Source: Candidatus Electronema halotolerans (lineage in GTDB: Bacteria; Desulfobacterota; Desulfobulbia; Desulfobulbales; Desulfobulbaceae). Taken from it: a stretch of 32,000 nucleotides of DNA. The position numbers were made by a program, and so were the translations under genes. Positions 6,257-29,515 of the stretch are shown here, piece after piece. Position 1 is the first letter of the stretch, and each line of letters begins with the position of its first letter. The notes under the pieces were generated by a model. It worked only from the letters and a program-made list of their open reading frames with translations. It searched no databases and was not told the origin of the DNA. The stretch spans positions 510,001 through 542,000 of the forward strand of contig OW818675.1 of the NCBI GenBank assembly GCA_942493095.1, written 5' to 3'.

Positions 6257-6258
6257 CC

Positions 6259-6813
6259 ATGTTCCGCAAGCTGTCCCGTCTGCCACGATACTATCTGCTC
6301 CGCGTCAAGCGGCTGAAGGGCGATCCTGAATATTTAGCCCGTGGCTTTGCCTTTGGCGTGTTCATGGGAGTCCTGCCCTTGGTGCCGGTGCAGACCATCA
6401 TCCTCGTGCCGCTGACCATCCTTTTCCGGGTCAGCACCATTGCCGCCCTGATTGCCGGGACCTTGGTCAGCAATCCCCTGACCTTCATGCCCCAGTATTA
6501 TCTGACCTGGAAGATCGGCAACGCGATCGTGCCGGGCGAAGTCTCGTGGGAGCAGCTCAATGCGGTGCTGCACGAGGTGGCCCGCTTCATGGCTGAGGAA
6601 AGCCTGCTGCGCGGCATTGCTGACAGCCTGACTGCAATCAGCCGACTCGGTCTCAACACAGTTGCTGTTCTGCTCACTGGCGGGGCCATCATCGGCATTC
6701 CTGCCGGTCTGATCAGCTACTGCTTTGCCCGCAAATTCTTTTATGCTGTCCGCGAGCGGCGGCTGAAACGCCAGCGTCTGCTCATAGACAGACCCAGAAA
6801 GCAAGACAACTGA
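6259..6813 (+). CDS. DUF2062 family membrane protein (copy 1)
   Basis: In-frame ATG 3 nt after the tsaD stop. YYLLRVKRLKGDPEYLARGFAFGVFMGVLPLVPVQT followed by TM segments. 184 aa. Confidence 0.8.
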   Translation: MFRKLSRLPRYYLLRVKRLKGDPEYLARGFAFGVFMGVLPLVPVQTIILVPLTILFRVSTIAALIAGTLVSNPLTFMPQYYLTWKIGNAIVPGEVSWEQLNAVLHEVARFMAEESLLRGIADSLTAISRLGLNTVAVLLTGGAIIGIPAGLISYCFARKFFYAVRERRLKRQRLLIDRPRKQDN

Positions 6814-6817
6814 CTGT

Positions 6818-7372
6818 ATGGAAACTGTGCTCCGAACTGCCCTGCGCCTGCCGCGTCTGCCACGGTATTATTTTCTCCGGGTCAAGCGGATGAAAGGCGA
6901 CCCGGAATATTTAGCCCGCAGCTTCGCCTTTGGCGTGTTCATGGGAGTGCTGCCGCTGATGCCGGTGCAGACCATCATTCTGGTTCCGCTGACCATCCTC
7001 CTCCGGGTCAGCACCATCACCGCCATGCTGGCCGGATATGTGGTCAGCAATCCGTTGACCTTTGTCCCCCAGTATTATAGCTGCTGGAAATTAGGCAATG
7101 CCATCCTGCCAAGCTGGGTGAGCTGGGAGCAGATTCACGCCGCCTTGCAGATCATCATCAATCCAGCGCCACAGTCAGACCTGTTCCAGAGCACCATGCA
7201 CGGTTTGACCGCTCTGAGCAAGCTCGGCTTCAAGGCCATAGCCGTGATGGAAACCGGCGGCACGATCATCGGCCTGCCCATCGCCATTGTCAGCTATTTT
7301 CTTGCCCTCAGATTCTTTTTGACCGTCCGGCAGAAGCGGGCGGTCAAGCATCGTTTGGATAATCGCCGCTGA
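6818..7372 (+). CDS. DUF2062 family membrane protein (copy 2, tandem paralogue)
   Basis: YYFLRVKRMKGDPEYLARSFAFGVFMGVLPLMPVQT. Also 184 aa and collinear with copy 1. Confidence 0.8.
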   Translation: METVLRTALRLPRLPRYYFLRVKRMKGDPEYLARSFAFGVFMGVLPLMPVQTIILVPLTILLRVSTITAMLAGYVVSNPLTFVPQYYSCWKLGNAILPSWVSWEQIHAALQIIINPAPQSDLFQSTMHGLTALSKLGFKAIAVMETGGTIIGLPIAIVSYFLALRFFLTVRQKRAVKHRLDNRR

Positions 7373-8278: not shown

Positions 8279-8312
8279 GTGGATTCAAGTTCCATTTGCA
8301 ACTTGAATCCAC
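8279..8312. repeat. palindromic element related to the termini of the 3364-3549 element; possible rsmA terminator
   Basis: GTGGATTCAAGTT (8279-8291), loop CCATTTGC, AACTTGAATCCAC (8300-8312). The first 25 nt match 3364-3388 at 22 of 25. Confidence 0.6.
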
Positions 8313-12886: not shown

Positions 12887-13171
12887 TTACTTGTCCATTT
12901 CTATCCATCTGCTCAATATTTCAATGATCTTCTCAGCCTGCCTTGCGCTGGAAATATTGAATTTGGATTTGGGGACATATTGATCATTGCGTTTCTGATA
13001 GCGGCGGATGCTGTATTTCAAGGGGCCATAGTCCTGCTTCTTGCGGTCATACTCTTGATATCGGAACAACAGCGTTGTCCACAGTCCCTTGGTCAGCACC
13101 TCCTTGTCCAGCTCTTTGACCAACAGCAGGCCGTCTTCCTCGTAGTTTATGGTTATCTCATCAATATCCAT
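12887..13171 (-). CDS. hypothetical protein (94 aa) in a lower-GC patch
   Basis: AGGGAG RBS. The sequence is charged with a coherent composition (MDIDEITINYEEDGLLLVKELDKEVL...). I did not recognise a family. Confidence 0.55.
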   Translation of the reverse strand: MDIDEITINYEEDGLLLVKELDKEVLTKGLWTTLLFRYQEYDRKKQDYGPLKYSIRRYQKRNDQYVPKSKFNISSARQAEKIIEILSRWIEMDK

Positions 13172-13315
13172 CCCTGCTCCCTTTCATGACGCTGTTTTCC
13201 ACACGTCTTTTTCATATTCTCAAGAAGGCTGCTGAAGCAGCGGGTCATCAGGCGCATGAATTCTCTCCTGCCTGCAAGCAAGGCCAGCAGCCCCATGAAG
13301 CTGCTGACTGATCAT

Positions 13316-16300: not shown

Positions 16301-16687
16301 GGTTACTCTGGTGATGCCGGCCCTGACCACGGTTTTGGCCTTTTCCGTGGCCTCATCCTCATTTTCCGTGACCCAGGAGACATGCTCGCGGACGCAGACC
16401 ATGTGGAATGCCTTGTACGGATTCAGCCCGGCCCGCTGACAGGCGGCCCGGAAGGTTTTTTCGTGCATTCTCGGCGAACAGGAGGCCACGACCACGCAGT
16501 CAAGGTCATGCTCCTTGATGTCCGTCTCCACCAGCTCTTGGCCGGGATCGGAACACATGAAGAGGTAATCGCGGGCCACGACCACGCCGGGCAAGGTGGC
16601 CGCATATTCAGCCACTTCCTGCACCCGAACTCTGTAGGCAATGTTGATGCCGCAGTGACAAATGTAAAATCCAATCCGTTTTGACAT
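13316..16687 (-). CDS. HdrA-like flavoprotein with an inserted GltD/NfnB-like NAD(P)H-binding module and a C-terminal 2x[4Fe-4S] ferredoxin domain
   Basis: HdrA N-terminal domain IGFYICHCGINIA...CSPRMHE and FAD fold VVGGGIAGMQASL. The insert has CGRVCHHPCEGAC, VAVVGSGPAGLTAAYYLA...GGMMAVGIPEYRLP and VIVIGGGNVAVD. The HdrA fold then resumes (CLECGVCSECYQCVDAC, CSRVCCMY, FLAGTCQGPKDI). The C-terminus has CIGCQACIGLC and CKGCGSCAGHCP. The start is set at ATG 16687, which has an AGGAG RBS. Confidence 0.85.
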   Translation of the reverse strand: MSKRIGFYICHCGINIAYRVRVQEVAEYAATLPGVVVARDYLFMCSDPGQELVETDIKEHDLDCVVVASCSPRMHEKTFRAACQRAGLNPYKAFHMVCVREHVSWVTENEDEATEKAKTVVRAGITRVTKQSPLTPSKFSVNTNTLVVGGGIAGMQASLDIAKAGYKVYLVEKGSTVGNHMLQYDKTFPTLDCAACIGTPKMVAVGQHPNIELITHAEVEEVQGFIGNFKVKVHKKPRYVKEGICTGCGDCAKVCPITRPNEWDVGIADRKAIYRSFPQAVPITYIIDKKGPAPCKATCPAHVSIQGFIALMELGKYKEAVRVFKKDHPFPATCGRVCHHPCEGACTRGDVEQPMAIQHLHRYIADLDLDSADPYMPEIEQKRSEKVAVVGSGPAGLTAAYYLAQKGYQVTIFEKLPIKGGMMAVGIPEYRLPRETLAKEIGLIEKLGVVIKTNTAFGRDVTAASLRKDGYKALFIGTGLHGSRALGVPGEEMQGILPGVAFLRNVALGKDVTVGRKVIVIGGGNVAVDVALTAKRLGGAKVTMICLEKREEMPAWDYEVEEALEEQIDIINSLGPKRFLGADHVCTGVEFKRCTAVFDASGAFRPQYDENELISLEADTVIVAIGQSAELDFADSENIAVTKRGGLDVDPLTLQSPISWIFAGGDAVHGPRSVVEAVASGKEAAESIDRFLNGRQLEEGRARSWDYTKPDIGDKKPVKRERAPRLPVRERTGNFREIIGSLTEEQVQREVRRCLECGVCSECYQCVDACMPKAIDHDMQPETLELEVGSIIVATGFDLMDPTPMTQYGYGRHRNVYTSFEFERLSNATGPTSGKLLIRDDEGKFTKVPKSVAILHCIGSRDKNHHEYCSRVCCMYALKFAHLLKDKCGHDTQVYNFYIDMRCFGKGYEEFYKKVQEEGVRMIRGKAGQITELADKTLVVRAEDTLSGRMVEINVEMAILCMAIEPRKDALDVARTFGITTGADGFFQEEHPKLEPVSTPSSGVFLAGTCQGPKDISDTVAQAKGAAAECLSLSSSGTVEISPMISAIDPDICIGCQACIGLCAYGAITFNAYKGVSEVNEAVCKGCGSCAGHCPSGAAKIRHFTDRQIFAEIDGLLQQQVPA

Positions 16688-16701
16688 GTCGTTTCTCCTG
16701 A

Positions 16702-18981
16702 TCACAGCTCGTTGTTCCGACCGGAATTCTTTTCGTCAGATGCCGCCAAGGACTGCAAGACCAGCTCCGCGACATCATGGACCGCAATTTTTTGCTCAAG
16801 CCCGCGCTGCCGGACAGCATTATCGAGCATTTTCAGACAATAGGGGCAGGCGACCGCAATAATGTCCGCGCCCGTATCCAGAGCCTCCTGCACCCGCATT
16901 GCGCCGAGATTCTCGGCAGGCTGCTCCTTGAAGATGCCGCCACCACCACCGCCGCAGCAGAGGCTCTGCCGCCGGTTGTGGGCCATCTCAACCAAGGTGA
17001 AGCCGGGAATGCTGCTGAGTATCTGGCGCGGAGCATCATAGACACCATTATAGCGTCCCAAATAGCAGGGGTCATGATAGGTGACAGTCCGGCGCAGCTC
17101 CTTGACCGGACGGACAGTGCCTTCCTGGATCAGCCGCCAGAGCAGCTCAGTGTAATGCTCCGCAGGCAGGTTCAGCCCCTCATAGTATTGGCTGAACGCG
17201 GTCAGGCAGTGCGGCGAGGCAGTCACCATCTTCTGCACACCAGCCTCAGCAAGGGCTGCCCTGTTTTTTGCCGCCAATTTGTTGAAAGTGGCAGTGTCGC
17301 CGCTCCGATGGGCCAAGTCGCCGCAACAGCTTTCCTTGTCACCCAAAGTGCGCACAGAAAGCCCAGCGGTTTGCAGCAGCCGCAGCAAAGCTCGACCCGC
17401 CATTTTGTTCCGCTGCGCCGGAGTCTCGTCATAGGCCGTGGTGCAGCAGGTGAAGAGACAGTATTCCGTTTCCGGTGTGACAGCGGGAAGGGCGGCATCT
17501 CCTGCCCAAGCAGCCCGCTGCGCCGGAGCACCCTGCCACGGATTGTTCTGTTCTTTGAGACTGTTCAGCGGTGCTTGCAAATATTCTGGAATCTTACCAG
17601 ACTGGATGTTCCGCTGCCGGATGGTTCTGGTCACATCAATAATTTCAATGCCGCGTGGACAGTTCTCCACACAGGCGTTGCAGGTCAGGCAGTTCCAGAC
17701 GTTTTTGTCAACGTCCTCGACCGTGGCCGAGTCTGTGGAAATCGCCCGCAGAATCCGCCGGGCACTGTACGTGCTGACATTGTTGACCGGACAGACCGTG
17801 GTGCAGGTGCCGCACTGCATGCAGGCCATAAAGGTTTCATCAAGGTCTTTTTTCAAGGACTCGGCGTTGACCGTGGAAGGCTGGACCGCCTTTTTCTTGA
17901 CTGTGGTCAGAAAGATGGCAAAGGGCCGGTAGAAGAGATGCGACCACTTGCCAAAAGGCACTTCAATGATCAGCATGGGCACGGCAATCGCCAGATGCAC
18001 CACATACATGATGTAGGTCGGCAGCGGCCAGTTGCCAATGCGGAACAGGTGCATGACCATGCCGGACAAGGCGGTGAGGAAAAGCAGAATCAGGAAGAGC
18101 CAGTCTGTGGCATGGGAATAGCGATGGAGTGCCTCCTCCTTGGTCTTGTAGCGGCTCCAGAGCTTTTCCCCGGAAAAATACAGGATGGTGCCAGCGGCGT
18201 AATACCCGAAGATGCTGGTGAAATGCCATTCTGCCGTGTCCCGCTGAAACCAGCGGATAAAGACCACGATCAGGAGCATCTTGGTCATGTAGCCGGTCAT
18301 GAGGAGGAAATGCTTGAGCCAGCGCGAAATTTTCTTGGTATCGCTCGTGCAGCCCCGCCAGCGTTTCTGGGTGGCGAAATGGATGAGGAACTGCTTGGCC
18401 TCACTGAGCAGAAGGCTGGGCGGCACTGAGCTGTCGCCCATGATGTGGCGGTACATGCGGAACAGATTCGTGCCCAGAAACAGGGTCAGAATGCCGGTCA
18501 TGAGCAGGTCGCCCATTTCAATCCAAGCGACCGGAGCAAAGGTGTTCAGTGCCACCCGGTCTGTGATCACCGGGCCATGAAAGAGCACGAACATCAGAAT
18601 GATGCCAAGGGAGAGCGTGGCCAAGGAGCCGATTTCCCACGCCTTGGAAAGATACAATTTTTTCGCCAGTCCAGTCCAATCCAGCTCCGTGGTCAGCCAG
18701 CGGCGGACCGCCATCATGGTTTCCGCCGGTTCTGCGCCGCGTGGACAACGGATGTTGCAGTCGCCGCAATAGTAGCAGAGCCACGGCTCTGGCGCGGCCA
18801 GCAGCTTGTCCTTCAGACCGAGCTGGATATAGCGGTATATTTTCCGGGGAAAGGCATGGCTGCTCTCAGACAGGGAGCAGGAGGCGGAACAAAGACCGCA
18901 CTGCATGCACAGCTCCATGTCTTTGGCACCCAGCTCCTCAAGTTCCTTGTGCAATTCTTGCTGAACACTGTACTGTTTCAA
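16702..18981 (-). CDS. fusion protein: HdrC/QmoC-like 2x[4Fe-4S] + NarI/HdrE-like heme-b membrane domain + HdrD/DsrK-like ferredoxin and 2xCCG domains
   Basis: CMQCGLCSASC and CYYCGDCNIRCP, then ~6 TM segments with conserved His residues (HFLLMTGY, HLFRIG, HLAIAV, WSHLFYRP), then CMQCGTCTTVCP and CLTCNACVENCP. CCG motifs are CCTTAY...CCGD and DPCYLGRY...CCGGGGG. Confidence 0.85.
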   Translation of the reverse strand: MKQYSVQQELHKELEELGAKDMELCMQCGLCSASCSLSESSHAFPRKIYRYIQLGLKDKLLAAPEPWLCYYCGDCNIRCPRGAEPAETMMAVRRWLTTELDWTGLAKKLYLSKAWEIGSLATLSLGIILMFVLFHGPVITDRVALNTFAPVAWIEMGDLLMTGILTLFLGTNLFRMYRHIMGDSSVPPSLLLSEAKQFLIHFATQKRWRGCTSDTKKISRWLKHFLLMTGYMTKMLLIVVFIRWFQRDTAEWHFTSIFGYYAAGTILYFSGEKLWSRYKTKEEALHRYSHATDWLFLILLFLTALSGMVMHLFRIGNWPLPTYIMYVVHLAIAVPMLIIEVPFGKWSHLFYRPFAIFLTTVKKKAVQPSTVNAESLKKDLDETFMACMQCGTCTTVCPVNNVSTYSARRILRAISTDSATVEDVDKNVWNCLTCNACVENCPRGIEIIDVTRTIRQRNIQSGKIPEYLQAPLNSLKEQNNPWQGAPAQRAAWAGDAALPAVTPETEYCLFTCCTTAYDETPAQRNKMAGRALLRLLQTAGLSVRTLGDKESCCGDLAHRSGDTATFNKLAAKNRAALAEAGVQKMVTASPHCLTAFSQYYEGLNLPAEHYTELLWRLIQEGTVRPVKELRRTVTYHDPCYLGRYNGVYDAPRQILSSIPGFTLVEMAHNRRQSLCCGGGGGGIFKEQPAENLGAMRVQEALDTGADIIAVACPYCLKMLDNAVRQRGLEQKIAVHDVAELVLQSLAASDEKNSGRNNEL

Positions 18982-21942: not shown

Positions 21943-22370
21943 AGATTCAGCCTTTGCAGAGCTTGCAGCCAATCAGTGGCTGGGAGGATTTTTTCCGGCA
22001 CGGCCAGGGCTATCTGAACGCCGCTGTCGGAGCGCACCGCAAGCAGGTGCAGGCCTTCACACCGGAGATTCTCTATAACTTGGCGGCAATGGCGATTGAG
22101 AAATTTGTCATGGCCGCCCTGATGCGGCACGGGGCCATGCCCTACAACCATACTATGGTGGATTTGGTTGAAGCGATGGAGAAAACCTTTCCGGGCAGAC
22201 TGGGGCAAATTCAAGACGACCTGCTCCGTTTAGATAAATACCAGGAAATCTGCGATCTGGACGGCTTCAAGATCAGTCCGCCAAAGCCGGAGGAAATCCC
22301 GGCCATGCTGGAAGTGGCAGAGAAGCTGCGGGAGCTGGTTCTTGGAGAGCTGCTTGCCTGCAACGTATAA
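21939..22370 (+). CDS. HEPN-like helical protein
   Basis: AAMAIEKFVMAALMRHGAMPYNHTMVDLVEAMEK resembles the HEPN 'A.EKalKA.l...G......H.l..L' helix pair. The start has a 4-nt overlap (ATGA) with the GNAT gene. Confidence 0.45.
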   Translation: MKIQPLQSLQPISGWEDFFRHGQGYLNAAVGAHRKQVQAFTPEILYNLAAMAIEKFVMAALMRHGAMPYNHTMVDLVEAMEKTFPGRLGQIQDDLLRLDKYQEICDLDGFKISPPKPEEIPAMLEVAEKLRELVLGELLACNV

Positions 22371-22399
22371 AAAACAAACAGATAAATCTGGTTGCGCAG

Positions 22400-22699
22400 A
22401 TGACAGAACGAAAGCTCGGTGTGGTCAAAGAAATCGTCGAAGAGGTGGGCATGGGCATTTCCCATGTCTATGAAGATTTGGTCTTTCTCGACCATAACGC
22501 CATCTTGCTCCAGTTCACCGATGACAGCAGCAAACTCCTGCTGCGCATCAACCGCGAGGCGGATCAAGAGACGGCTGCCAGTGGTGCGGCTCTGCTCAAG
22601 CAGGCGGGGTTGGCGCGGGAAATGCAGTTTGTGGAAAGCGGCAGCTATGCGCTGGCCCAGGACGGGCCGGAACAGGTGCGGATTGAGTTTTTCTCCTGA
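22400..22699 (+). CDS. hypothetical protein (99 aa)
   Basis: Co-oriented and tightly spaced within the operon. No family recognised and the start is uncertain. Confidence 0.5.
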   Translation: MTERKLGVVKEIVEEVGMGISHVYEDLVFLDHNAILLQFTDDSSKLLLRINREADQETAASGAALLKQAGLAREMQFVESGSYALAQDGPEQVRIEFFS

Positions 22700-22739
22700 G
22701 TTGTTTTAACGAAAATAATGCCTGAACGGAGGTCGGATC

Positions 22740-22961
22740 ATGGCAAAAGCAGATGTGGAAAAATTGCTGGAAGCAGGCGGCAAGGATAAGAAGATCAAGG
22801 CAAAATATGATGTTCCGGCCACCAAGGAAGAGTTTGTCGCCTTGGCAGCGCAGGACGGCTACAACTTCACCGTGGAGGAGCTGGAAGCTGTGCTCAAAGA
22901 ATCCGGCGATGTCTTTGAAAAATACGGCAATCCGCCTAAACGGTCAATTTGGTGGACATAG
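22740..22961 (+). CDS. Nif11-domain small protein / possible Nif11-type leader peptide
   Basis: GGAGG RBS. ADVEKLLEAGGKDKKIKAKY...KEEFVALAAQDGYNFTVEELEAVLKE matches the Nif11 N-terminal domain pattern, followed by the 19-aa tail SGDVFEKYGNPPKRSIWWT. Confidence 0.7.
   Translation: MAKADVEKLLEAGGKDKKIKAKYDVPATKEEFVALAAQDGYNFTVEELEAVLKESGDVFEKYGNPPKRSIWWT
22855..22961 (+). repeat. direct repeat copy A (functional 3' end of the Nif11-like gene)
   Basis: Aligns without gaps to 23891-23997, differing at 10 of 107 nt. Confidence 0.85.
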
Positions 22962-22968
22962 AAAGACA

Positions 22969-23005
22969 AAAGAAGGATGCAAGTAATGCATCCTTCTTTT
23001 TGTTT
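22969..23005. terminator. Rho-independent (bidirectional) terminator
   Basis: AAAGAAGGATGCA (22969-22981), loop AGTAA, TGCATCCTTCTTT (22987-22999), then TTTGTTT. This is a 13-bp stem. An A/T-rich run on the other side also gives a U-tract for the minus strand. Confidence 0.7.
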
Positions 23006-23056
23006 GACAGGATAGGCAATCTAAATCATTAGATTGATTTTAGCTGATTGCCTTTT

Positions 23057-23599
23057 TTACATTGGAATGCAGAACAACCTCTGGTCGAACGATTCCTTGC
23101 CGAATATGTACCAAACACTTCCTGCTGCACTCAAGCAGATTTTATGCACATCGAATGACAATGTCAAAGAAAGATCAGCACCCGCCAATCCTACATTTGG
23201 GTGAAAACCAACAGTTACGTTATGACTGTCAAAATTGTATGATGTGCACCATACTTTGGCACCTGCAACAATAAGACACACTTTAAGCTCTGCTTGCCAG
23301 TCTGATGGCGTTCCGCATACCTTTAATTCTCCCCCTATTCCTACGATTTTATACAGAGAAACTTCAAATGGTTGGGTTTTGCAGTTGTCAACAGTTTTCA
23401 GTGCGCCAAGAACAGGCATACGAGCTGCTGCTGCACGAACCATAGGAGCTGCTGTGGCAGGCTCTGCCGCATCTCTGCTAATAGCAGAGAGAATCTGCTC
23501 TTTAAGCTTGTCAACTGGCATGTCAGCATGCGCTGCCATCATCTGCCAATCTTTCTCGCTAACATGAGAAGATACAGCTTGTAATGTATCCTTTTCCAT
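23057..23599 (-). CDS. orphan hypothetical protein (180 aa from the second ATG)
   Basis: GGAGGA lies 7 nt before ATG 23599; the track ORF starts at 23614. Ala-rich helical N-terminal third, beta-rich C-terminal part with 6 Cys. No family recognised. Confidence 0.6.
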   Translation of the reverse strand: MEKDTLQAVSSHVSEKDWQMMAAHADMPVDKLKEQILSAISRDAAEPATAAPMVRAAAARMPVLGALKTVDNCKTQPFEVSLYKIVGIGGELKVCGTPSDWQAELKVCLIVAGAKVWCTSYNFDSHNVTVGFHPNVGLAGADLSLTLSFDVHKICLSAAGSVWYIFGKESFDQRLFCIPM

Positions 23600-23659
23600 T
23601 TTTACATCCTCCATGTAATTTGTTAACTTCCATCCAAGATAGATGGAATAATTTTGTCC

Positions 23660-23686
23660 ATTATAATTTGGCTAAAAAAAAATCAA
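23660..23686 (-). promoter_or_regulatory. sigma-70-type promoter candidate for the cassette-1 gene
   Basis: On the minus strand: TTGATT (23686-23681), 15 nt spacer, TATAAT (23665-23660). The spacer is shorter than optimal. Confidence 0.3.
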
Positions 23687-23890
23687 TAAAAAAGTATTGT
23701 TAGGAATAATTATTATTCTTGAAAGTAGGCAAAAATATAGTGTTGCAGGTTTCCGAAGCAGAGTGTTTTAAGGAGTGGTTCGCATTCAATTTGCTAATTT
23801 TACTTGCTTAATATTGGCACAGGCTAACGTAACAGAAAGTTGCAACACTATAGGTTCAGTTTATTAAAAAAAATGAAGAATGGAATAGGC

Positions 23891-23997
23891 ACGGCTACAA
23901 CTTCACCGTAGAGGAGCTGGAAGCGGTGCTCAAAGAATCCGGCGATGTCTTTGAAAAATACGGCAATCCGCCCAAGCGTTCCATCTGGTGGACCTGA
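23891..23997 (+). pseudogene. start-less second copy of the last 34 codons plus stop of a Nif11-like gene (repeat copy B)
   Basis: Encodes GYNFTVEELEAVLKESGDVFEKYGNPPKRSIWWT*, identical to copy A. The in-frame upstream sequence runs back to TAG at 23851-23853 with no ATG or GTG. Confidence 0.7.
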
Positions 23998-24026
23998 GCG
24001 GAACCAGAGGCAGCAGGGCGGCTCAA

Positions 24027-25133
24027 TCATCTTGCCGGGATGCTCCGGGATGCCTTGACCGCCGCTGCTGCCGCATCATGAAACCAAGGCCGGAACTGGC
24101 GGATTCTGCTGTTCTCCCGGCTCGGATGAACCCGGTTGCTGAGGAGAATGACAATCAGCTCCTGCTCCGGGTCGATCCAGAATGAAGTGCCGGTGAAGCC
24201 CAGATGACCGACACTTTGGGCGGAGAAATGCCTGCCGCTGCTGGATGAGCCGGGCGTGGGTCTGTCAAAGCCGAGACACCAGGTCTGGCCGGAGAGCTGC
24301 GGCTGCAAGCCTTGGGACAGAAAAGCCGCCCAAGAGCTGGCCACGGCTTCCCCTCTCTCACCCTGCCAATTATCCAAAATCACCCCGCAGAGCTGCAACA
24401 CCCCGCTGACTGTGCCGAACAATCCCGCATGACCGGCAAGGCCGTTTACGAGCCAGCAATGCTCATCATGCACCTCACCCCGCATCATCCTGCCCCGCCA
24501 TGAGCACTGCTCTGTGGCGGCGCAGTTCTGCCTCTGCTCCACGCTGACCTGACAGAGCAGCTCTTTTCCCAGCCCCAGCGGCCCCGCAATCCGCTCCTGA
24601 AAATTGGCGGCCAAATCCTTGTCAGTCAACTCCTCCGCTATCCACCCCAGCAGAATGAAGCCAAGATCGCTGTACAAACAGCGGCTCTCCGGCGCATAGG
24701 CCATTGGCTCGTTGAGAATGAGACGAAGCAACCGCGCCTTGTGGTCCGTTTTTTGCACCGGCGCAAAGGTCTTGAACCACGGCTGATAAGCGGCCAGCCC
24801 GGATGAATGCGAGAGCAGCCTGCGCAGCGTGATCTGCTGTTTGTCCGGCGGCACATCAGGCAGCAGATCAGCCAGCCTGTCTTCCAGCCGGAGCCGCCCT
24901 TCCGCAAAAAAATCGTAGAAAAGCAAGGTGGTCGAAAGGGCCTTGCTCAACGAGGCCAGATCAAACAGGGTGGCCGCCGTCACCAGGGACTGGTCGCGGC
25001 TGTCCATGACTCCGGCCCACGCTGTCCACGTCTGCCGGGCCGGGCCAGTGCCGCAGGCGACTGCCGCTGCCGCGCCGGGAAAAACCTGTTCGGCAAGCCC
25101 CTGCCGCAGGAGCCGCTGTAGTGTCTGGATCAT
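24027..25133 (-). CDS. beta-lactamase-family serine hydrolase (class C / esterase / PBP-like)
   Basis: SLSKAL (SxxK), YSDLGF (YxN-like) and GHLGFTGTSFW (K/H-T/S-G box). Confidence 0.85.
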   Translation of the reverse strand: MIQTLQRLLRQGLAEQVFPGAAAAVACGTGPARQTWTAWAGVMDSRDQSLVTAATLFDLASLSKALSTTLLFYDFFAEGRLRLEDRLADLLPDVPPDKQQITLRRLLSHSSGLAAYQPWFKTFAPVQKTDHKARLLRLILNEPMAYAPESRCLYSDLGFILLGWIAEELTDKDLAANFQERIAGPLGLGKELLCQVSVEQRQNCAATEQCSWRGRMMRGEVHDEHCWLVNGLAGHAGLFGTVSGVLQLCGVILDNWQGERGEAVASSWAAFLSQGLQPQLSGQTWCLGFDRPTPGSSSSGRHFSAQSVGHLGFTGTSFWIDPEQELIVILLSNRVHPSRENSRIRQFRPWFHDAAAAAVKASRSIPAR

Positions 25134-25153
25134 GTTTGAGGGTCATATTTGGG

Positions 25154-25298
25154 TGTTGAAAACTTGTTGAAAACCTGTTGATAACTTGTTGATAACTTCC
25201 TGCCGCCGCTGCCGCCCGCCGAGTTATCAACAAGTTATTAACAAAGTTATCAACACCTCTTTTACTGAAAAACAAGCAGGTTGCGTTAGTTTTCAACA
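25154..25298. repeat. array of eight 11-bp iteron-like units, 4 forward and 4 inverted, around a GC-rich spacer
   Basis: Forward units: TGTTGAAAACT (25154), TGTTGAAAACC (25165), TGTTGATAACT (25176), TGTTGATAACT (25187). The spacer is tcctgccgccgctgccgcccgccg. Inverted units: AGTTATCAACA (25222), AGTTATTAACA (25233), AGTTATCAACA (25245), AGTTTTCAACA (25288). TTATCAACA matches the DnaA-box consensus TTATCCACA at 8 of 9. A tract that is 27/30 A+T follows at 25321-25350. Confidence 0.8.
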
Positions 25299-25363
25299 GG
25301 TGCGGCCCGTCCCAACAACAATAGGTTATATATATACAATATATTTATTAAGGCCGCTCCGAC

Positions 25364-25453
25364 CTGTGGAAAACTGCGTCATAAAAAAAGCCCGTGACCA
25401 AAAAGATCACGGGCTGCGAACATCTTTGAACGAAAAACGGTCAGCGGCTCACC
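25364..25453. repeat. direct repeat R1 (distal copy of the dsrH-like 3' end and terminator region)
   Basis: Aligns to 26458-26549 with a few substitutions and 1-3-nt indels, roughly nine-tenths identical by eye. Confidence 0.75.
25383..25415 (-). terminator. Rho-independent terminator (within R1)
   Basis: On the minus strand: AGCCCGTGA, loop, TCACGGGCT, followed by TTTTTTT. Confidence 0.7.
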
Positions 25454-26457
25454 GTAGCTGAAAAAAAGAGGCGGAAAACTGGAAACTGCGTTGGAGATTC
25501 AAATTATCGTTATATATCAAACAGATTCAGTTGAACAAAACCGGGTTCTTTCAAATTGATTTTTTGCTGGGCAGACTCACCTTCTTTCAAACCGCCTAAT
25601 CTGTTGATATTTTTTACTATTGTCGGGACACAATATTCGGATGCGCTTTCTTTTACTTGGAGGGTATTAAAACGAAGCACTCTCCAGCCTTCTGTTTTCA
25701 AATTATTGTCACGAACATTATCTTTTGCGGCTTGTTGACGATTTGCGTGCCAAAAGTCTCCGTCTGTTTCAACGTCAATCTTTCCTGATTGACAATATAT
25801 TGCAAAATCCAAAGCATAGTGTCTGTTATTAACATTTACAAACTCCTGACGTTCCGCATTTATCTGCAACCGTTTAAATTCTGACCATAAACGGTCTTCA
25901 AGGGGACTTGCATCGAAAAGATCATTTATTTCAACTGCTGTGACAAACTTTTCCCATGTTGTCGAAATGAACACTAATCGTCTGTAACGCCTGCTGAGAA
26001 TAGGTTTTGGTAAACGTTTAAGGGGCGGATCGATAAAAATTTGGTAATACCTTTTCCTGCTTTTTACATTAGCAGGTTCATCAGGAAAAAGCTGCCATCT
26101 GTAAGCCTTTTTGATATCTAATATTTTCGCGTAATAGTTTATCGCATAAGCATCTTTGCCAAAGACTTTCGTCATGTAAAACGCTATAAAGCAAGGAGGC
26201 CAACGCTTTTTCAGCCATTTCTCAACGCTGCTGACAGGAATCCGATACCAATGCTTTTCATTCACAATGGAAAAATCATGCAAATTGTTAATTATTGCCA
26301 CAAGCACTTCGTTATGCAAATCGTTATCCATTACAACAGCTTCAAATGAAGGCCTTCAACAGCAGCCAAGTTAATCCGCGCATCTGCCCCCTCCACGCGA
26401 GAACTTCAGCACTTTCCGAAAAATCATCCAAGGCATGGAATTTCAGACAGTACCAAT
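25454..26457. mobile_element. low-GC single-gene insertion ('cassette 2') between R1 and R2
   Basis: Markedly AT-rich compared with the flanks and carries only the DUF559-type nuclease gene. No recombinase gene is present. Confidence 0.45.
25510..26331 (-). CDS. DUF559 / Vsr-like restriction-endonuclease-fold protein with an uncharacterised N-terminal domain
   Basis: The C-terminus YALDFAIYCQSGKIDVETDGDFWHANRQQAAKDNVRDNNLKTEGWRVLRF is the classic DUF559 pattern (D...E.DG..H....D..R...L...GW.VLRF). The N-terminal ~150 aa (HWYRIPV..., FIAFYMTK..., RRLVFISTTW) is not assigned. Confidence 0.75.
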   Translation of the reverse strand: MDNDLHNEVLVAIINNLHDFSIVNEKHWYRIPVSSVEKWLKKRWPPCFIAFYMTKVFGKDAYAINYYAKILDIKKAYRWQLFPDEPANVKSRKRYYQIFIDPPLKRLPKPILSRRYRRLVFISTTWEKFVTAVEINDLFDASPLEDRLWSEFKRLQINAERQEFVNVNNRHYALDFAIYCQSGKIDVETDGDFWHANRQQAAKDNVRDNNLKTEGWRVLRFNTLQVKESASEYCVPTIVKNINRLGGLKEGESAQQKINLKEPGFVQLNLFDI

Positions 26458-26549
26458 CTGTGAAAAACTGCGCCATGAAAAAAGCCCGTGACCAGAAGAT
26501 CACGGGCTGCGAAACATCTCTGAACGAAAAAGCTCGTCAGCGGCTCACC
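26458..26549. repeat. direct repeat R2 (proximal copy, containing the dsrH-like stop codon and operon terminator)
   Basis: See R1. The repeat ends at GGTGAGCCG, which contains the TGA stop at 26545-26547. Confidence 0.75.
26478..26508 (-). terminator. Rho-independent terminator of the tusA-dsrEFH operon (within R2)
   Basis: On the minus strand: AGCCCGTGA, loop, TCACGGGCT, followed by TTTTTT. Confidence 0.7.
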
Positions 26550-26718
26550 ACCAGCAGACAGTCTTGTCAGCGGCGAAAATCTTGCTCACCAGCTCATCGT
26601 AGTTGGGATTTTCCTCATAGAGACGGAATTCATCCGCCTCCCGGTCACGGTTGAGAATCTCAACCAAGGTCGTGACCACCTCGTTCGGCTCGGAACGATA
26701 CACTTGCAGCATTTTCAT
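26545..26718 (-). CDS. 57-aa DsrH/TusB-like mini-protein
   Basis: Below the ORF-track cut-off. GGAGGAG RBS lies 10 nt upstream. MKMLQVYRSEPNEVVTTLVEIL... and ...NYDELVSKIFAADKTVCWW resemble the N- and C-terminal ends of DsrH/TusB with the middle missing. Alignment is by eye. Confidence 0.45.
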   Translation of the reverse strand: MKMLQVYRSEPNEVVTTLVEILNRDREADEFRLYEENPNYDELVSKIFAADKTVCWW

Positions 26719-26733
26719 GATGATCTTCTCCTC

Positions 26734-27081
26734 CTATTCCGCGCAGGCTGGCGGCGGCTCATTGGTCTGCTTGGACAGGCCGTAGGGAATGATGATATCA
26801 GCCTCGCGCATTCTCTCGCCCAGGGCCTGAAGATCGATTTCAGTCAGAGACACGTCCTCCGGCAGATCATCCGGCGCAGGCGCGCCGCAGGTGAAGACCT
26901 CGCCCTCCATGTCGGCAATCCAAGCGATGTTCTCAGCCATGTAGCTGGAGAACTTCGGAAATTCTCCGTTCAAGATCACCGGGTAGCCGTAGTGGTTCTC
27001 TACGGCCAGCCCCAGTGCCGAACGGATGCCGTCGTTGTACATCCGGTTGGCGATCAGCACATATACTTTCAGCGATTCCAT
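26734..27081 (-). CDS. DsrF/DsrE-like family protein
   Basis: 115 aa. KVYVLIANRMYNDGIRSALGLA fits a DsrE/F fold N-terminus, and its operon position lies between the dsrE-like and dsrH-like genes. Confidence 0.55.
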   Translation of the reverse strand: MESLKVYVLIANRMYNDGIRSALGLAVENHYGYPVILNGEFPKFSSYMAENIAWIADMEGEVFTCGAPAPDDLPEDVSLTEIDLQALGERMREADIIIPYGLSKQTNEPPPACAE

Positions 27082-27094
27082 AGCAGGGGCCTCC

Positions 27095-27427
27095 TTATAA
27101 GACGATGTACTTGCCGCATTCGTCCAGCAGCGCGCCGTGGAATGCCTGAGTTCGCATCTGCTTGGCGGTCAGTCCGGCAGGAATGTCCTTAGCCGAGTCA
27201 TAGCCCTCGCAGGTGTAGCTGTCCGCGCAGATGGCCAAGTTGTCCTCGCCGCACAGCTCGGCCAGCGGCTGAAAGCGGGGGTCCTTGGTCAGATGAACGG
27301 ATTTGTAGGTAAAGAAAATCATCGGCTTTTTGCCAGCTCTTGCCGCAGCTTGGGCAATTCCCACCACATGCGTCATCTGCTGGGGCGAGGTGACAAAAAT
27401 CGCCAGTTTGTCTGGATCAGCAGCCAT
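27095..27427 (-). CDS. DsrE family sulfur-relay protein
   Basis: 110 aa. KLAIFVTSPQQMTHVVGIAQAAARAG, with an ICADSYTCEGY Cys region where DsrE has its active-site Cys. Confidence 0.65.
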   Translation of the reverse strand: MAADPDKLAIFVTSPQQMTHVVGIAQAAARAGKKPMIFFTYKSVHLTKDPRFQPLAELCGEDNLAICADSYTCEGYDSAKDIPAGLTAKQMRTQAFHGALLDECGKYIVL

Positions 27428-27476
27428 TTGGCTTATCCTCCTTGGTTATGGCTTTGCAAAGCGGTTGCGGAAAGAA

Positions 27477-27734
27477 TCAGCCCTTCTGAACAAAAAAGCT
27501 CATGTAGCCGGTCTCTTCCTTCTCGCCCAGATACTCATGACCGGCCCGGGCGCACCAGCCAGGAATGTCGTTGCGGGAACCAGGATCAGTGCCGTCAACC
27601 TGGAGGATTTCTCCAGTATTGATCTTGTTGATTTCCTTTTTGGTTTTCAACAGCGGCATTGGGCAGCTCAAACCTTTCGCATCCAGAACCGCAGCCGGGG
27701 TCAGGCCCTCAGGGGCTTTTTTCACATCGCTCAT
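27477..27734 (-). CDS. tusA: TusA-family sulfurtransferase
   Basis: LDAKGLSCPMPLLKTKK contains the CPxP active-site motif. 85 aa. Confidence 0.9.
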   Translation of the reverse strand: MSDVKKAPEGLTPAAVLDAKGLSCPMPLLKTKKEINKINTGEILQVDGTDPGSRNDIPGWCARAGHEYLGEKEETGYMSFFVQKG

Positions 27735-28189
27735 TGTGCATTCTCCTTATCGTGAATGAAAAAAAAAGAGTGGTTATTCCTTGTGCTGAACTGCCTTTGA
27801 TCAGGCCTTTTTTTCAGCTCATCAGCTAACTGAGATTTGTTCTCTATAACGAATGCAAACCTGTCTGTCAAGCTATTTCCTGCCGGAACGCCTTTGGCAG
27901 CCGGAAGGTCATCTTGTTTGAATAGCAGGGAAAAATAAACAACCCGTTGTCTATCCGCTTGATCTGGCGGCTGATTCCCTGAAAAAAATCTTGCAGGAAT
28001 GTCAGACTTTCGCAAACCCTGTCCGCCTAAAATCCTCAAGAAAAAAACTGTACAAACAGGACGGAAAATTATAAAATATTTTTCCGACAATTCAGCGCCA
28101 ACAGACTGCCTCTGCTTTTTTGGCGGAGACAGTTTATGAACAGACTGTATAACTGTCGGAACCTCAAGAGAAAAGAGGATGGAGAGACT

Positions 28190-29515
28190 ATGAGTGAATC
28201 AAGTTTTGTCGGCAAGACAAGAAACCTGTACAAGCAGGTCTGCGAGACTGAGTGGGAGGCCAACATCACCGGCGTGATTGTCGCCCTGCTCAGTATCCTG
28301 CTGATGGTCTGGTGGCGGCCTTGGGGCGCAGTGGGGGCGATCCGCAACTGGGGCGACTGGCTGCTCTCCTTTGTCGGCGGCGCAACTCCCAAGTCAATTT
28401 TCATTGACTCCGGCTCCGTGATCGGCATCGGCTTTCTCGGCGGAGCCTTTCTCTCCGCCTTTTTGGCCGGACAGTTCGCCTTCCGTTTTCCACCCTACCG
28501 CGAGGCGGTCAAAGGCGCAATCGCCGGAGTGCTGATGGGAGTCGGCTCGGCCTTGGCTGGCGGCTGCAATGTCGGCGGCATGTACAACGCCCTTGGCAAT
28601 CTGGCCGCCAACGGCTTCAGCATGTGGCTGGGAATCGTCGCCGGAGTCCTCCTCGGTCTCTGGCTGATCTACAAGGAAATGGAGCATATTTCCTGGGGCG
28701 ACAACGGCGCGTGGACTGTTGACCTGCCCCGCGAGCTGCAAACCCTGCTCGGCCTGCTGACCTTTTTCGCCCTGCTTGCCGGAGCGCGCTGGTACAGCAG
28801 CTACAGCGGCGAGGACAACGCTGACATCATCACCTCGCTGTCCGGGGTGCTGCTGCTGGCCGCAGGCATCGGCTATGCCATGCACCGGGGCCGCTGGTGC
28901 ATGATTCAGGGCTTCCGCGAGCCGCACATGACGGGCGACTGCACCTTGGCCAAATCTGTGGCGCTGTCCATTTTCGTCCTTGCCATTGGCGGGGCAGTGG
29001 TCAAATATGCCGTACCGGTCAAAGGCGCGGCAGTGCTCAATCCTGCCTATTATGTGCGCGGCACCTTTGGCTGGGGCGGCGTGCTGGGCGGCTTCCTCTT
29101 TGGAATAGGCGGCATGTTCGCAGGCGGCTGCGGCTCCGGCACCCTCTGGCGGGTCGGCGAAGGTCAGCTCAAGCTCTGGATTGTCGTGCCCTTCTTCGGC
29201 ATAGCCAATTCCCTGATGACCAAATGGTTCAGCATGGATGTCGAGGTCAGCGGCAATGGCCTCAAGAGCCTGATGGCTCAGGCAAAACTTGGTCTGATCG
29301 GCTATGATGTTGACGAGGTCAAGGAAGCGATTGCAACAGGCGGCAGTCTGACAGTCTCCGGCATTGAGAAGGCCGGGTATCTGGGCCGATACATCTACAT
29401 GCCCGATGCCATCGGCTTTGGCTGGACCTTAACCATCATCACCTTTATGATGGCCCTCTGGTATGTGGTTGTGACCTGGAACGAGGAGAGCAACAAGCTG
29501 ATCGTGCCCATGTGA
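28190..29515 (+). CDS. YeeE/YedE family sulfur-compound (thiosulfate) transporter, long form
   Basis: Multiple TM segments with AGGCNVGG and AGGCGSGTLWR motifs. I chose ATG 28190 (GGAGAG RBS) within track ORF 28136..29515. A C-terminal extension of ~90 aa carries one further TM segment. Confidence 0.8.
   Translation: MSESSFVGKTRNLYKQVCETEWEANITGVIVALLSILLMVWWRPWGAVGAIRNWGDWLLSFVGGATPKSIFIDSGSVIGIGFLGGAFLSAFLAGQFAFRFPPYREAVKGAIAGVLMGVGSALAGGCNVGGMYNALGNLAANGFSMWLGIVAGVLLGLWLIYKEMEHISWGDNGAWTVDLPRELQTLLGLLTFFALLAGARWYSSYSGEDNADIITSLSGVLLLAAGIGYAMHRGRWCMIQGFREPHMTGDCTLAKSVALSIFVLAIGGAVVKYAVPVKGAAVLNPAYYVRGTFGWGGVLGGFLFGIGGMFAGGCGSGTLWRVGEGQLKLWIVVPFFGIANSLMTKWFSMDVEVSGNGLKSLMAQAKLGLIGYDVDEVKEAIATGGSLTVSGIEKAGYLGRYIYMPDAIGFGWTLTIITFMMALWYVVVTWNEESNKLIVPM

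Follow-up and report, generated by a model that had tools for sequence, protein, structure and literature searches.

The locus lies in Candidatus Electronema halotolerans, within a stretch of 32,000 nucleotides that was analysed as a whole and is referred to here as the window. It is found directly behind a tusA-linked four-gene operon on the minus strand, the last gene of which encodes a 57-aa protein (p57). Between the stop codon of this gene and a host intergenic array of DnaA-box-like motifs, beyond which lies a gene for a protein of beta-lactamase fold, an AT-rich segment carrying a single gene (here called the cargo) is bracketed by two copies of a direct repeat, R2 and R1. A second arrangement with the same architecture is located 2.4 kb away, at the 3' end of a Nif11 gene. 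The features concerned are the following.

26545-26718, minus strand: target gene, the last of the tusA-linked four-gene operon, a 57-aa open reading frame
26458-26549, minus strand: R2, the gene-proximal repeat copy
26332-26457, minus strand: leader of the insert, 126 nt, 47.6% GC, from R2 to the cargo start codon
25510-26331, minus strand: cargo gene, 273 aa, the only credible open reading frame in the insert, with a Pfam DUF559 match
25454-25509, minus strand: trailer of the insert, 56 nt, containing GGAAACTGCGT
25364-25453, minus strand: R1, the distal repeat copy
25154-25298, no strand: host intergenic box array, seven TTWTCAACA boxes in inverted groups, DnaA-box-like
22855-23993, plus strand: sister event, an insert flanked by a repeat of the Nif11 gene 3' end
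23057-23614, minus strand: orphan gene of the Nif11 insert, 185 aa, its only gene

In roughly 70 Desulfobulbaceae loci the p57 gene is conserved behind the genes for TusA, p110 (110 aa) and p115 (115 aa). An earlier note on this DNA, made from the sequence alone, had named the operon tusA-dsrEFH; the searches did not confirm the dsrEFH part of this name: the 110-, 115- and 57-aa proteins matched no DsrE, DsrF or DsrH model in Pfam (at E-values of up to 10) and none in NCBIfam. The 57-aa protein had no match of any kind in either library, and a PDB sequence search with the 110- and 115-aa proteins returned nothing relevant.

As the earlier note had described, the segment is flanked by diverged direct repeats of about 90 nt. 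The alignment that it proposed was carried out, and gave 88% identity between R1 (90 nt) and R2 (92 nt) over 93 columns, with three small indels and a longest exact match of 18 nt. Read on the minus strand, R2 starts with GGTGA, that is, with the second and third bases of the terminal Trp codon of p57 and its TGA stop codon (26545-26547); the note's statement that the repeat begins at the stop codon of a dsrH-like gene is therefore right about the stop codon, with no model match behind the gene name. R2 thus covers the last 5 nt of the target open reading frame, an intrinsic terminator and a DnaA-box-like TTTTTCACA (26459-26467). R1 likewise contains GGTGA, a terminator and a canonical DnaA box, TTTTCCACA (25365-25373), and is followed directly by host intergenic sequence common to the empty sites described below. 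The terminator stems (26483-26508 in R2, 25389-25415 in R1) each comprise 11 bp, seven of them GC, followed by a minus-strand T-run, and the folding energies predicted for the two repeat-borne terminators are -30.7 and -32.3 kcal/mol; where stems have changed between lineages, pairing is preserved only as G-U wobble on the transcribed strand. Both copies are thus predicted to be strong terminators, the hairpin of R1 being as intact as the note had reported, and since the terminator has been duplicated, two near-identical terminators now lie 1.1 kb apart.

A profile of the repeat (nhmmer) run across 1.2 Mb of the window and related loci found no copy beyond the insertion site, and the repeat is single-copy in every species with an empty site. 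The hairpin pattern, too, turned up nowhere else, either in the window or across the 1.2 Mb of related loci, and an Rfam search of 22000-28200 gave nothing above noise. Since the repeat is absent elsewhere in this related sequence, it is not a REP-type element, the dispersed kind of terminator that, the earlier note had cautioned, would make the flanking coincidental. The flanking would be equally coincidental if the two-copy state were ancestral and had been lost from the apparently empty relatives, a loss that R1 x R2 recombination could in principle bring about by deleting the gene, and a 22-nt piece of the repeat, ATGACGCWGTTTTCCACASGTC, does recur once, at 13186-13207. With the full repeat confined to one site, the occupied lineages nested among outgroups that all lack the gene there, and a cargo that differs sharply from its host in third-position GC (see below), we give coincidence in either form almost no credence. 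An integron gene cassette seems improbable as well: the flanking repeats are homologous to a terminator of the host itself, which is single-copy in species with an empty site, whereas a cassette end would carry an attC site unrelated to host sequence. The note had also pointed to a third partial copy of the repeat near 25480. The motif GGAAACTGCGT is indeed present at 25481-25491, inside the trailer, and is only marginally unexpected: with up to one mismatch allowed it has three matches against 0.64 expected, and 3 of 100 shuffles reached at least that count.

Between the repeats lie 1004 nt of unique sequence (25454-26457) with a GC content of 39.3%, compared with 55.5% for the tusA operon and 61.7% for the beta-lactamase-fold gene. 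The cargo gene (38% GC overall) has a third-codon-position GC of 35%, against 73-76% in host genes, and is compositionally foreign. The claims of the earlier note about the insert, namely that it is a low-GC insertion, that a DUF559-type nuclease on the operon's strand is its sole gene and that it lacks a recombinase, were all borne out: the open reading frame list and Pfam revealed no second credible gene, no methyltransferase, no transposase and no recombinase. No terminal inverted repeats were found at its ends. A transposon was therefore rejected, and the note's judgement that the repeats are too long and too diverged for a transposase target-site duplication was upheld. A true transposable element is available for comparison, as another Electronema lineage (L114) carries an insertion sequence in the same intergenic spacer, just past the terminator. 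That element encodes a DDE transposase, ends in perfect terminal inverted repeats of 17 bp and has duplicated 5 bp of its target; the DUF559 insert has neither a transposase nor terminal inverted repeats nor a short target duplication. The first ~25 nt of the leader keep weak similarity to host sequence beyond R1, and between lineages the leader aligns at 65-75% identity over only ~60% of its length.

The cargo protein matches Pfam DUF559 (PF04480) with E=1.3e-9 and 38.4 bits (curated cut-off 20.6), and residues D175, E188, G191, H195, D204, R207 and R220 are invariant across 43 homologues. The family match and the conserved motif residues identify its C-terminal domain as a Vsr/DUF559-type PD-(D/E)XK nuclease; PDB sequence matches were weak (3hrl and 3r3p). 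The N-terminal domain (about residues 1-135) found nothing in sequence and profile searches, including Pfam. An AlphaFold2 model gave this domain a pLDDT above 90 (the nuclease domain was poorly modelled), and its top Foldseek matches were all YTH or ASCH domains, with a probability of about 1 and moderate similarity (E 3e-3 to 2e-2, target-normalised TM-score 0.35-0.46), so that a YTH/ASCH-like fold of the PUA superfamily is predicted. On the strength of these models, the most likely identity of the cargo is that of a restriction endonuclease of a Type IV-like, modification-dependent kind that acts alone, in which a PUA-superfamily reader of modified bases is joined to a Vsr/DUF559 nuclease. 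An exact-sequence look-up found the protein not to be on record, defence-system libraries yielded only a weak match to a homing endonuclease model (PADLOC, E=0.0023), and a phage or plasmid vector for the cargo was rejected, no relative having turned up in viral contigs or in a plasmid collection. We know of no enzymatic activity in this DUF559/Vsr-type family. Fusions of PUA-superfamily readers to Vsr nuclease domains already exist as uncharacterised modification-dependent candidates (Lutz et al. 2019, PMC6765204). The cargo resembles the Type IV enzymes treated there in combining an N-terminal domain of predicted EVE/YTH/ASCH-like fold with a C-terminal nuclease, and in having no adjacent methyltransferase, but its nuclease is of the Vsr/DUF559 type rather than an HNH or classical PD-(D/E)XK domain.

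The uninterrupted site, for which the earlier note had suggested searching in relatives, was found in six related Candidatus Electronema contigs (L016, L017, L032, L033, L042 and L108), representing five species genomes and one metagenome contig. At these sites the p57 stop codon is followed by one terminator, an AT-rich stretch, the box array and the beta-lactamase-fold gene, with a gap of about 290-313 nt between p57 and the latter gene, compared with 1412 nt in the window. The box array, which in the window is adjoined by an AT-rich stretch at about 25310-25350, is conserved across the empty sites as well and serves as a marker of the host flank. These six sites confirm that the layout seen by the earlier note (host gene, terminator, cargo gene, terminator copy) arose by insertion.

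The occupied lineages (the window and L001; L007 and L008; L009) form one clade, to which the empty species L016 is sister, and all outgroups (Electronema, Electrothrix and other Desulfobulbaceae) are without the cargo gene at the insertion site. Both R1 and R2 are present in all three occupied lineages, and R1 copies group with R1 copies and R2 copies with R2 copies; the duplication is therefore older than the split between the lineages. Nucleotide identity between lineages is 87-88% for the cargo and 88-91% for the flanks, with similar dS, and the dN/dS of the cargo is 0.17-0.21, values which indicate joint divergence of cargo and flanks, with purifying selection acting on the cargo. The insert is present in all eight occupied-clade contigs that reach past the first repeat copy; a metagenome scan with the beta-lactamase-fold gene found no close relatives of this clade. 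The earlier note had held that a nuclease gene syntenic and vertically inherited across relatives would speak against an insertion. Within the three-lineage subclade the gene is both, and the sister species lacks it, from which it follows that the insertion is real but old and fixed; it appears to be no active mobile element. Nothing in the sequences suggests ongoing excision or circle formation, because all eight contigs are occupied and the longest exact R1/R2 match is so short, and the two copies have probably diverged too far by now to recombine readily.

As the earlier note had suggested, we looked for the nuclease elsewhere with different flanks. Homologues with 74-79% amino-acid identity were found in four unrelated contexts of other genomes (L010, L011, L102 and L104), none of which has a flanking repeat above shuffle level. 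Flanking repeats as a general trait of the nuclease family were thus rejected, and since its homologues occupy unrelated contexts without repeats, the cargo moves between genomes without being a self-contained element. The family comprises more than 1,100 sequence clusters, with members in Chloroflexota and Dehalococcoidia and 58-86% identity among the homologues aligned. These data also bear on whether the nuclease might be a free-standing homing endonuclease that cleaved the empty site, its gene then being copied in during repair. The weak PADLOC match, a weak resemblance in sequence to PDB 3r3p, which is a Vsr-like homing enzyme, and the presence or absence of the gene at a conserved intergenic site would all be in keeping with this. 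However, the homologues of other genomes sit at unrelated sites, the gene has descended vertically and under purifying selection, nothing suggests that it has reached sister species, its N-terminal domain resembles a modified-base reader, and flanking direct repeats are not a product of homing; taken together, these observations make homing very unlikely.

The sister event at Nif11 offers a younger counterpart. Its repeat is 103 nt long (copies at 22855-22957 and 23891-23993, 93% identical) and encloses an insert of 933 nt with 38.9% GC. The copies share an identical block of 47 nt, which would probably still permit recombination between them. A strain 99% identical to the window (L001) is empty at this site, with a single 103-nt copy that equals the distal copy except for two adjacent bases, and the event thus appears to be recent and strain-polymorphic. 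The proximal copy has clustered synonymous changes, mostly towards A or T, together with a TAG stop codon and terminator hairpin that are common to a 73%-identical relative (L096/L097), in which the same orphan gene adjoins Nif11 with no duplication. Donor-type differences start only at 22875-22889, past 267 nt without any difference. Sequence comparison thus shows that the proximal copy is of donor type and arrived with the donor DNA, and that the distal copy is the recipient's, which favours one homologous crossover combined with one illegitimate join; a single site (23910) separates a circular single crossover from this model with one homologous end. As the cargo of this event is not a nuclease, the architecture does not need one. 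A possible third case is a 69-nt repeat at 1876/5058, for which no empty site was found; the one related contig located has the same arrangement.

Restriction(-modification) genes inserted with a long target duplication have been catalogued since 2000, the year of the report by Nobusato et al. The architecture of such insertions was defined by Furuta et al. 2010 (PMC2853133), whose wider survey takes in a solitary mcrA gene (Type IV) as well as repeats overlapping the 3' end of a gene, for example in H. influenzae. The DUF559 locus is a further example of this already described class. It shares direct repeats of more than 30 bp around a short insert (< 20 kb) of foreign composition, related genomes with a single repeat copy at the empty site and both flanks collinear, a repeat unique in the sequence examined (1.2 Mb), an insert with no transposase or integrase, a cargo that appears to be a restriction-type nuclease and, as in the H. 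influenzae cases (PMC2853133), a repeat overlapping the last bases of the upstream gene. It differs from the strict screen of Furuta et al., which called for both R and M genes, in that a DUF559/Vsr-type nuclease with a PUA-like domain stands alone with no methyltransferase, and from their cases in that it belongs to an uncultured cable bacterium and is ancient and clade-fixed rather than a strain polymorphism, in that both repeat copies appear to have been retained as working terminators, and in that a neighbouring event, at Nif11, has a non-nuclease cargo. A related principle is known from Rhs and T6SS orphan arrays (PMC5361080), in which a homologous anchor at a 3' end admits foreign DNA and the old 3' end is displaced downstream as a repeat. 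The Nif11 layout is exactly that of such C-terminal or effector displacement and the DUF559 event plausibly so, although there is no toxin-immunity logic in these events and the piece displaced in the DUF559 event is a terminator, not a coding tip.

Taking these lines of evidence together, we hold with moderate confidence that an old, fixed insertion with long target duplication explains the DUF559 locus, including the mechanism and the cargo reading given here. About 1.0 kb of AT-rich, single-gene foreign DNA would have been joined behind the last gene of the tusA-linked operon in the ancestor shared by the Candidatus Electronema halotolerans-like clade, with no element-encoded recombinase or transposase involved. 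At least about 92 bp of the target, from the stop codon through the intrinsic terminator to a point some 20 nt past it, now flank the insert as direct repeats. The donor DNA most likely already bore a diverged copy of the operon's 3' end, and one homologous crossover in that copy would then have been paired with one illegitimate join further upstream in the recipient, a process named homology-facilitated illegitimate recombination. We know of no demonstration of this process, or of effector displacement, in cable bacteria. Campbell-type integration, in which a circularised fragment enters by a single crossover, would lead to an almost identical product. Under a homologous crossover, R2 would be donor-type or hybrid and R1 the recipient's own. 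Both copies would since have been kept as terminators, with R2 ending the sulfur-relay operon and R1 ending the nuclease gene and shielding the DnaA-box region and beta-lactamase-fold gene downstream. A comparison with the outgroup L016, in which R1 and R2 would be hybrids of reciprocal make-up, offered too few informative sites, and that reading was abandoned. Nor do we claim a duplication extending some 115 nt into the coding part of the target gene: L007 has a match at 15 of 16 positions, but local alignments of the trailer with the target gene are not significant in the window or L009 (p about 0.008 in L007).

For the DUF559 event this mechanism is extrapolated from its Nif11 sister. Within a genome R1 and R2 are 81-88% identical, similar to the roughly 85% between orthologous copies across lineages, and a duplication that was perfect at insertion and diverged afterwards would fit these identities just as well. 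Among the genomes examined no DUF559 homologue was found behind a tusA-linked operon without the duplication, and hence no donor-like arrangement. The duplication might accordingly have been made on the spot, from two breaks ~90-120 bp apart, possibly introduced by the cargo nuclease and filled after ligation, which would have left copies that were identical at first. Double-strand breakage has been suggested as a common property of such insertions by Kobayashi's group (Furuta et al. 2010, PMC2853133), catalytic residues are conserved in the cargo, itself a nuclease, and the divergence of R1 from R2 does not exceed what an insertion dating from shortly before the lineages split would lead one to expect. 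Nevertheless, the architecturally identical Nif11 event carries a non-nuclease orphan gene and has copies already about 7% apart, with a donor-type proximal copy, in host strains that differ by about 1%, and DUF559 homologues occupy four other loci with no flanking duplication. We therefore regard duplication on the spot as unlikely.

Site-specific recombination is the alternative source of repeats given by Furuta et al. (PMC2853133), and R1 and R2 might be the attL and attR of an integrative element whose recombinase has been lost or acts in trans, making it cis-mobilisable. Integrative elements typically hit the 3' ends of genes, restore them and leave imperfect repeats of tens of bp or longer. 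Yet the inserts of the window, L007 and L009 contain no recombinase, nor does that of the Nif11 event; the target sequences of the two events are unrelated; no long identical core is left, though that of an old event could have decayed; and the cargo homologues elsewhere have no comparable repeats. An att origin consequently seems to us quite improbable. We also entertain, as a speculation of low probability, that cable bacteria may harbour ~1 kb one-gene cassettes with no recombinase, which would carry a target-end homology arm of ~100 bp and move between strains as circles or linear fragments, with single-crossover integration and excision left to host recombination. If so, a general, undescribed mobility would have left its footprints in the 103-nt, 92-nt and possible 69-nt cases, all inside 32 kb, and these would not be independent accidents of illegitimate recombination.

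For insertion with long target duplication more widely, the value of the window is that an old, fixed event stands beside a fresh, strain-polymorphic one, a pairing that bears on the mechanism: a proximal copy from the donor and a distal copy from the recipient, as at Nif11, points to one-sided homologous recombination over staggered cleavage, and the locus is a concrete one from which both forms could be amplified from enrichment cultures. The family to which the cargo belongs, with its reader-like domain and Vsr-type nuclease, is widespread and a candidate for an uncharacterised modification-dependent restriction enzyme. For the organisms themselves, these events indicate that uncultured cable bacteria gain genes by recombination without dedicated mobile-element machinery.

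Every gene at the DUF559 locus lies on the minus strand, and its features are accordingly read in the minus direction:

26545-26718 (-): 57-aa target gene, the last gene of the tusA-linked operon, ending TGG TGG TGA
26458-26549 (-): R2, 92 nt, beginning at the GGTGA of the end of the 57-aa gene
25510-26331 (-): cargo gene, 273 aa, matching Pfam DUF559 (E=1.3e-9, above the curated cut-off)
25364-25453 (-): R1, 90 nt, a copy of R2 lying 1094 nt downstream

When aligned, R1 and R2 were found to be 88% identical over 93 columns, with three small indels. Each contains an 11-bp hairpin (7 GC) followed by a T-run, which has the appearance of a textbook intrinsic terminator (predicted folding energies of -30.7 and -32.3 kcal/mol). 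Stem bases that changed between lineages still pair, but only by G-U wobble in the transcribed strand, a pattern consistent with both copies working as terminators. The unique part of the insert (1004 nt) has a GC content of 39.3%, compared with 55.5% in the operon and 61.7% in the downstream beta-lactamase-fold gene, while third-codon-position GC is 35% in the cargo gene versus 73-76% in host genes. The cargo gene is the sole credible gene between R1 and R2; the insert has no second gene and no terminal inverted repeats. These data confirm the observation of the earlier note, that a repeat with a terminator in each copy brackets an AT-rich segment carrying one DUF559-type gene, and support its interpretation as an insertion. 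The third partial repeat copy that it placed near 25480 exists (GGAAACTGCGT at 25481-25491), yet is just marginally unexpected.

The name dsrEFH, which had been given to the small genes after tusA, is unverified, since no DsrE, DsrF or DsrH model matched the 110-, 115- and 57-aa proteins in Pfam (even with E allowed up to 10) or NCBIfam. TusB, TusC and TusD models from Pfam and NCBIfam likewise gave no match to the three proteins, and a PDB sequence search with the 110- and 115-aa proteins returned nothing relevant. The three genes (26545-27427) are conserved across Desulfobulbaceae, where they adjoin a YeeE-like sulfur transporter gene, and their products may represent an undescribed family of TusA partners.

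The genome of Ca. E. halotolerans has been described (PMC10030654), and an orphan protein encoded near the locus is 100% identical to one of its proteins. One genome per species was scanned using the adjacent YeeE-like gene as the query, which returned 80 loci. The uninterrupted site is present in five Electronema species (L016, L017, L032, L033 and L042) and in a metagenome contig (L108), in each of which a single terminator follows the 57-aa gene. Past this terminator, the empty sites possess the same AT-rich stretch and the same TTGATAAC/GTTATCAACA box array, and then the beta-lactamase-fold gene, so that the gap between the 57-aa and beta-lactamase-fold genes is 290-313 nt, versus 1412 nt in the window. 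A repeat profile built from six copies and searched over 1.2 Mb (the window plus 104 loci) matched this position alone, with one copy in each empty-site species and two wherever the site is occupied; within the sequence searched, this restriction to one position rules out a dispersed REP-type element. In another Electronema lineage (L114, 304-1356), an IS was found in the same spacer, just past the terminator, indicating that the spacer tolerates insertions. This genuine IS encodes a DDE transposase whose coding sequence is divided between two ORFs; it is bounded by perfect terminal inverted repeats of 17 bp (TAGGAGTTACGCAGTTG) and flanked by a target duplication of 5 bp (TCCGT). None of these features is seen in the DUF559 insert.

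The insert is present in L001, L002 and L004-L006, contigs that match the window at 99% identity. Two lineages at greater distance, L007/L008 and L009, carry it as well, and their cargo proteins share 85-86% identity with that of the window. All insert-bearing contigs have both repeat copies, and the insert is carried by 8/8 occupied-clade contigs that extend past R2. In a joint alignment, R1 copies cluster with R1 and R2 copies with R2, which implies that the duplication is older than the lineage split and that there was no later gene conversion between the copies. Between lineages, nucleotide identity is 87-88% for the cargo gene and 88-91% for flanking genes, while dS is 0.38-0.46 for the cargo versus 0.28-0.36 for the beta-lactamase-fold and YeeE genes; the cargo dN/dS is 0.17-0.21. 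Since the occupied lineages form one clade in a neighbour-joining operon tree, with the empty species L016 as its sister, the sequences indicate one insertion at the base of this clade, followed by retention under purifying selection. Vertical inheritance of the nuclease across relatives, which the earlier note had named as a finding that would refute an insertion, holds within the occupied clade, as judged by flank-like identity and dS, and stops short of its empty sister. The DUF559 feature is not an active element: the insertion is ancient and has become fixed.

A second event, about 2.4 kb away at the end of a Nif11 gene, is more recent:

22855-22957 and 23891-23993: 103-nt repeat of the Nif11 3' end, 93% identical direct repeats
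23057-23614: orphan gene of the insert, 185 aa, with just three homologues in the protein database

The 933-nt insert (38.9% GC) is absent from the 99%-identical strain L001, whose single repeat equals the window's distal copy save for two adjacent bases. The gene-proximal copy carries clustered changes, all synonymous (PKRSIWWT is unchanged) and mostly towards A or T, and has a TAG stop followed by a terminator hairpin; in insert-free genomes Nif11 stops at TGA and the beta-lactamase-fold gene follows directly. A relative with 73% identity (L096/L097) possesses a homologous TAG and hairpin, together with the orphan gene, which is native there and lies convergent with Nif11 without any duplication. 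These sequences mark the proximal copy as donor-type. Because the window and L001 show zero differences over 267 nt, with the first ones at 22875-22889, the left junction appears to be a homologous crossover in the terminal ~100-350 nt of Nif11. On the right (23890/23891), the junction appears to be an illegitimate join further upstream in the recipient's gene. The 'target duplication' of this event thus consists of the donor's copy plus the recipient's copy and was never a replicative duplication. Homology-facilitated illegitimate recombination would produce just such an outcome. The same product would be expected if a circularised fragment had integrated by one crossover, and the two models differ at just one informative site, 23910.

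Both events share an architecture in which the repeat begins right at a gene's end and the insert is a ~1 kb low-GC segment with one gene and no recombinase. From this match we infer that the DUF559 event arose by the same mechanism, in which case R1 would be the recipient's own copy and R2 a donor-type or hybrid one. The age of this event precludes sorting R1 and R2 into donor and recipient sequence, and no donor-like arrangement was found among the loci scanned. Weak similarity runs on for ~25 nt past the repeat, suggesting that the original homology was longer; what can be recognised today would then be just the terminator core, kept by selection. The longest exact R1/R2 match is now 18 nt, short of the 23-27 bp that RecA requires to recombine DNA efficiently in E. 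coli.

Matches to the cargo protein span more than 1,100 sequence clusters; 42 aligned homologues are 59-86% identical to it, the best 120 matches listed are 58-99% identical, and homologues include members of Chloroflexota, Dehalococcoidia and Desulfobacterota. No relatives were found in viral contigs or plasmids. The nuclease also occurs with different flanks, as homologues with 74-79% identity occupy four unrelated contexts, none with flanking repeats: between moaA and ybjQ in Electrothrix gigas, between genes for a CxxCxxCC protein and a hemerythrin in Electrothrix YB6 (5' end truncated), near toxin-antitoxin genes in a Desulfococcaceae genome, and in unrelated surroundings elsewhere in L104. 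Third-position GC of the gene is 24-35% in every host examined (including L007, L009, L010, L011, L102 and L104), and the DNA around the homologues has 48-57% GC. Within the Electronema clade this AT-richness persists despite vertical inheritance over a dS of ~0.4. Elsewhere in the window (6148-7372), two tandem DUF2062 paralogues have 300 nt in common at 78% identity; this pair and the neighbouring TsaD and KsgA genes have the same order in Electrothrix gigas (L011), where a DUF559 nuclease homologue lies two genes from TsaD.

The C-terminal domain of the cargo protein is of the Vsr/DUF559 type, with motif residues invariant across 43 homologues. Its N-terminal 135 residues gave no sequence-profile match and were modelled with pLDDT >90; the best structural matches of this model are all YTH or ASCH domains (probability ~1, but E 3e-3 to 2e-2), PUA-superfamily members that read modified bases. 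Lutz et al. (2019, PMC6765204) refer to proteins in which such a PUA-superfamily domain is fused to a Vsr nuclease domain, as candidate modification-dependent restriction enzymes yet to be characterised. Taken together with the Vsr-type domain and the YTH/ASCH-like model, this leads us to predict that the cargo gene encodes an endonuclease of a solitary, Type IV-like kind.

Seven TTWTCAACA boxes lie in two inverted groups at 25154-25298, adjoining an AT-rich stretch (25310-25350); the window has 8 such boxes versus 0.6 expected, and the array is conserved where other Electronema species have the empty site. Each repeat copy holds one canonical DnaA box, TTTTCCACA or TTTTTCACA (25365-25373; 26459-26467). 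Cumulative GC skew has its window minimum at ~27.5-28.5 kb, and no dnaA or dnaN was found among the window genes searched. The array may be an origin of replication or else a promoter under DnaA control. At 13186-13207, ATGACGCTGTTTTCCACACGTC matches the 3' end of the repeat at 20/22 positions, and the DnaA-box-like TTTTCCACA is part of the match. The spacer that contains it separates an HdrA-like gene (13316-16705, -) from a 94-aa gene (12887-13171, -), and the copy begins 15 nt upstream of the start codon of the latter on the opposite strand. A 26-35-nt sequence, GTGRATTCAAGTTCCA..TGCAACTT, forms an inverted pair 116 nt apart (3364-3398 and 3515-3549) and recurs at 8279-8312, overlapping its own reverse complement; every copy is intergenic, and it may be a small palindromic repeat element.

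A 69-nt direct repeat (1876-1944 and 5058-5126; 81% identity, 3182 nt spacing) may mark a third insertion of the same kind, at a gene's 5' end. Its first copy covers the start of an ABC ATPase gene (1278-1913, -), from the ribosome-binding site through codon 12, and the second is a diverged fragment in which ATG has become ATA. The two copies enclose a gene for a GCS2-family ligase and another, of 429 aa, without a Pfam match. No empty site was found, the single related contig (L101) having the same arrangement.

Furuta, Abe and Kobayashi (2010, PMC2853133) defined 'insertion with long target duplication' in operational terms, which the DUF559 event fits in its empty site, repeats >30 bp, short insert, absence of a mobility gene and unique repeat; it departs from the definition solely in its cargo, which there is a paired restriction and methyltransferase unit. 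Their survey also includes a solitary Type IV gene and repeats overlapping a gene's last bases. The mechanism considered here for the DUF559 and Nif11 events matches that proposed for the displacement of T6SS effectors and Rhs tips (PMC5361080). What is new is the cable-bacterium host, the cargo family, the occurrence of two neighbouring events (and possibly a third, at 1876/5058), and the clear donor signature in the fresh Nif11 event.
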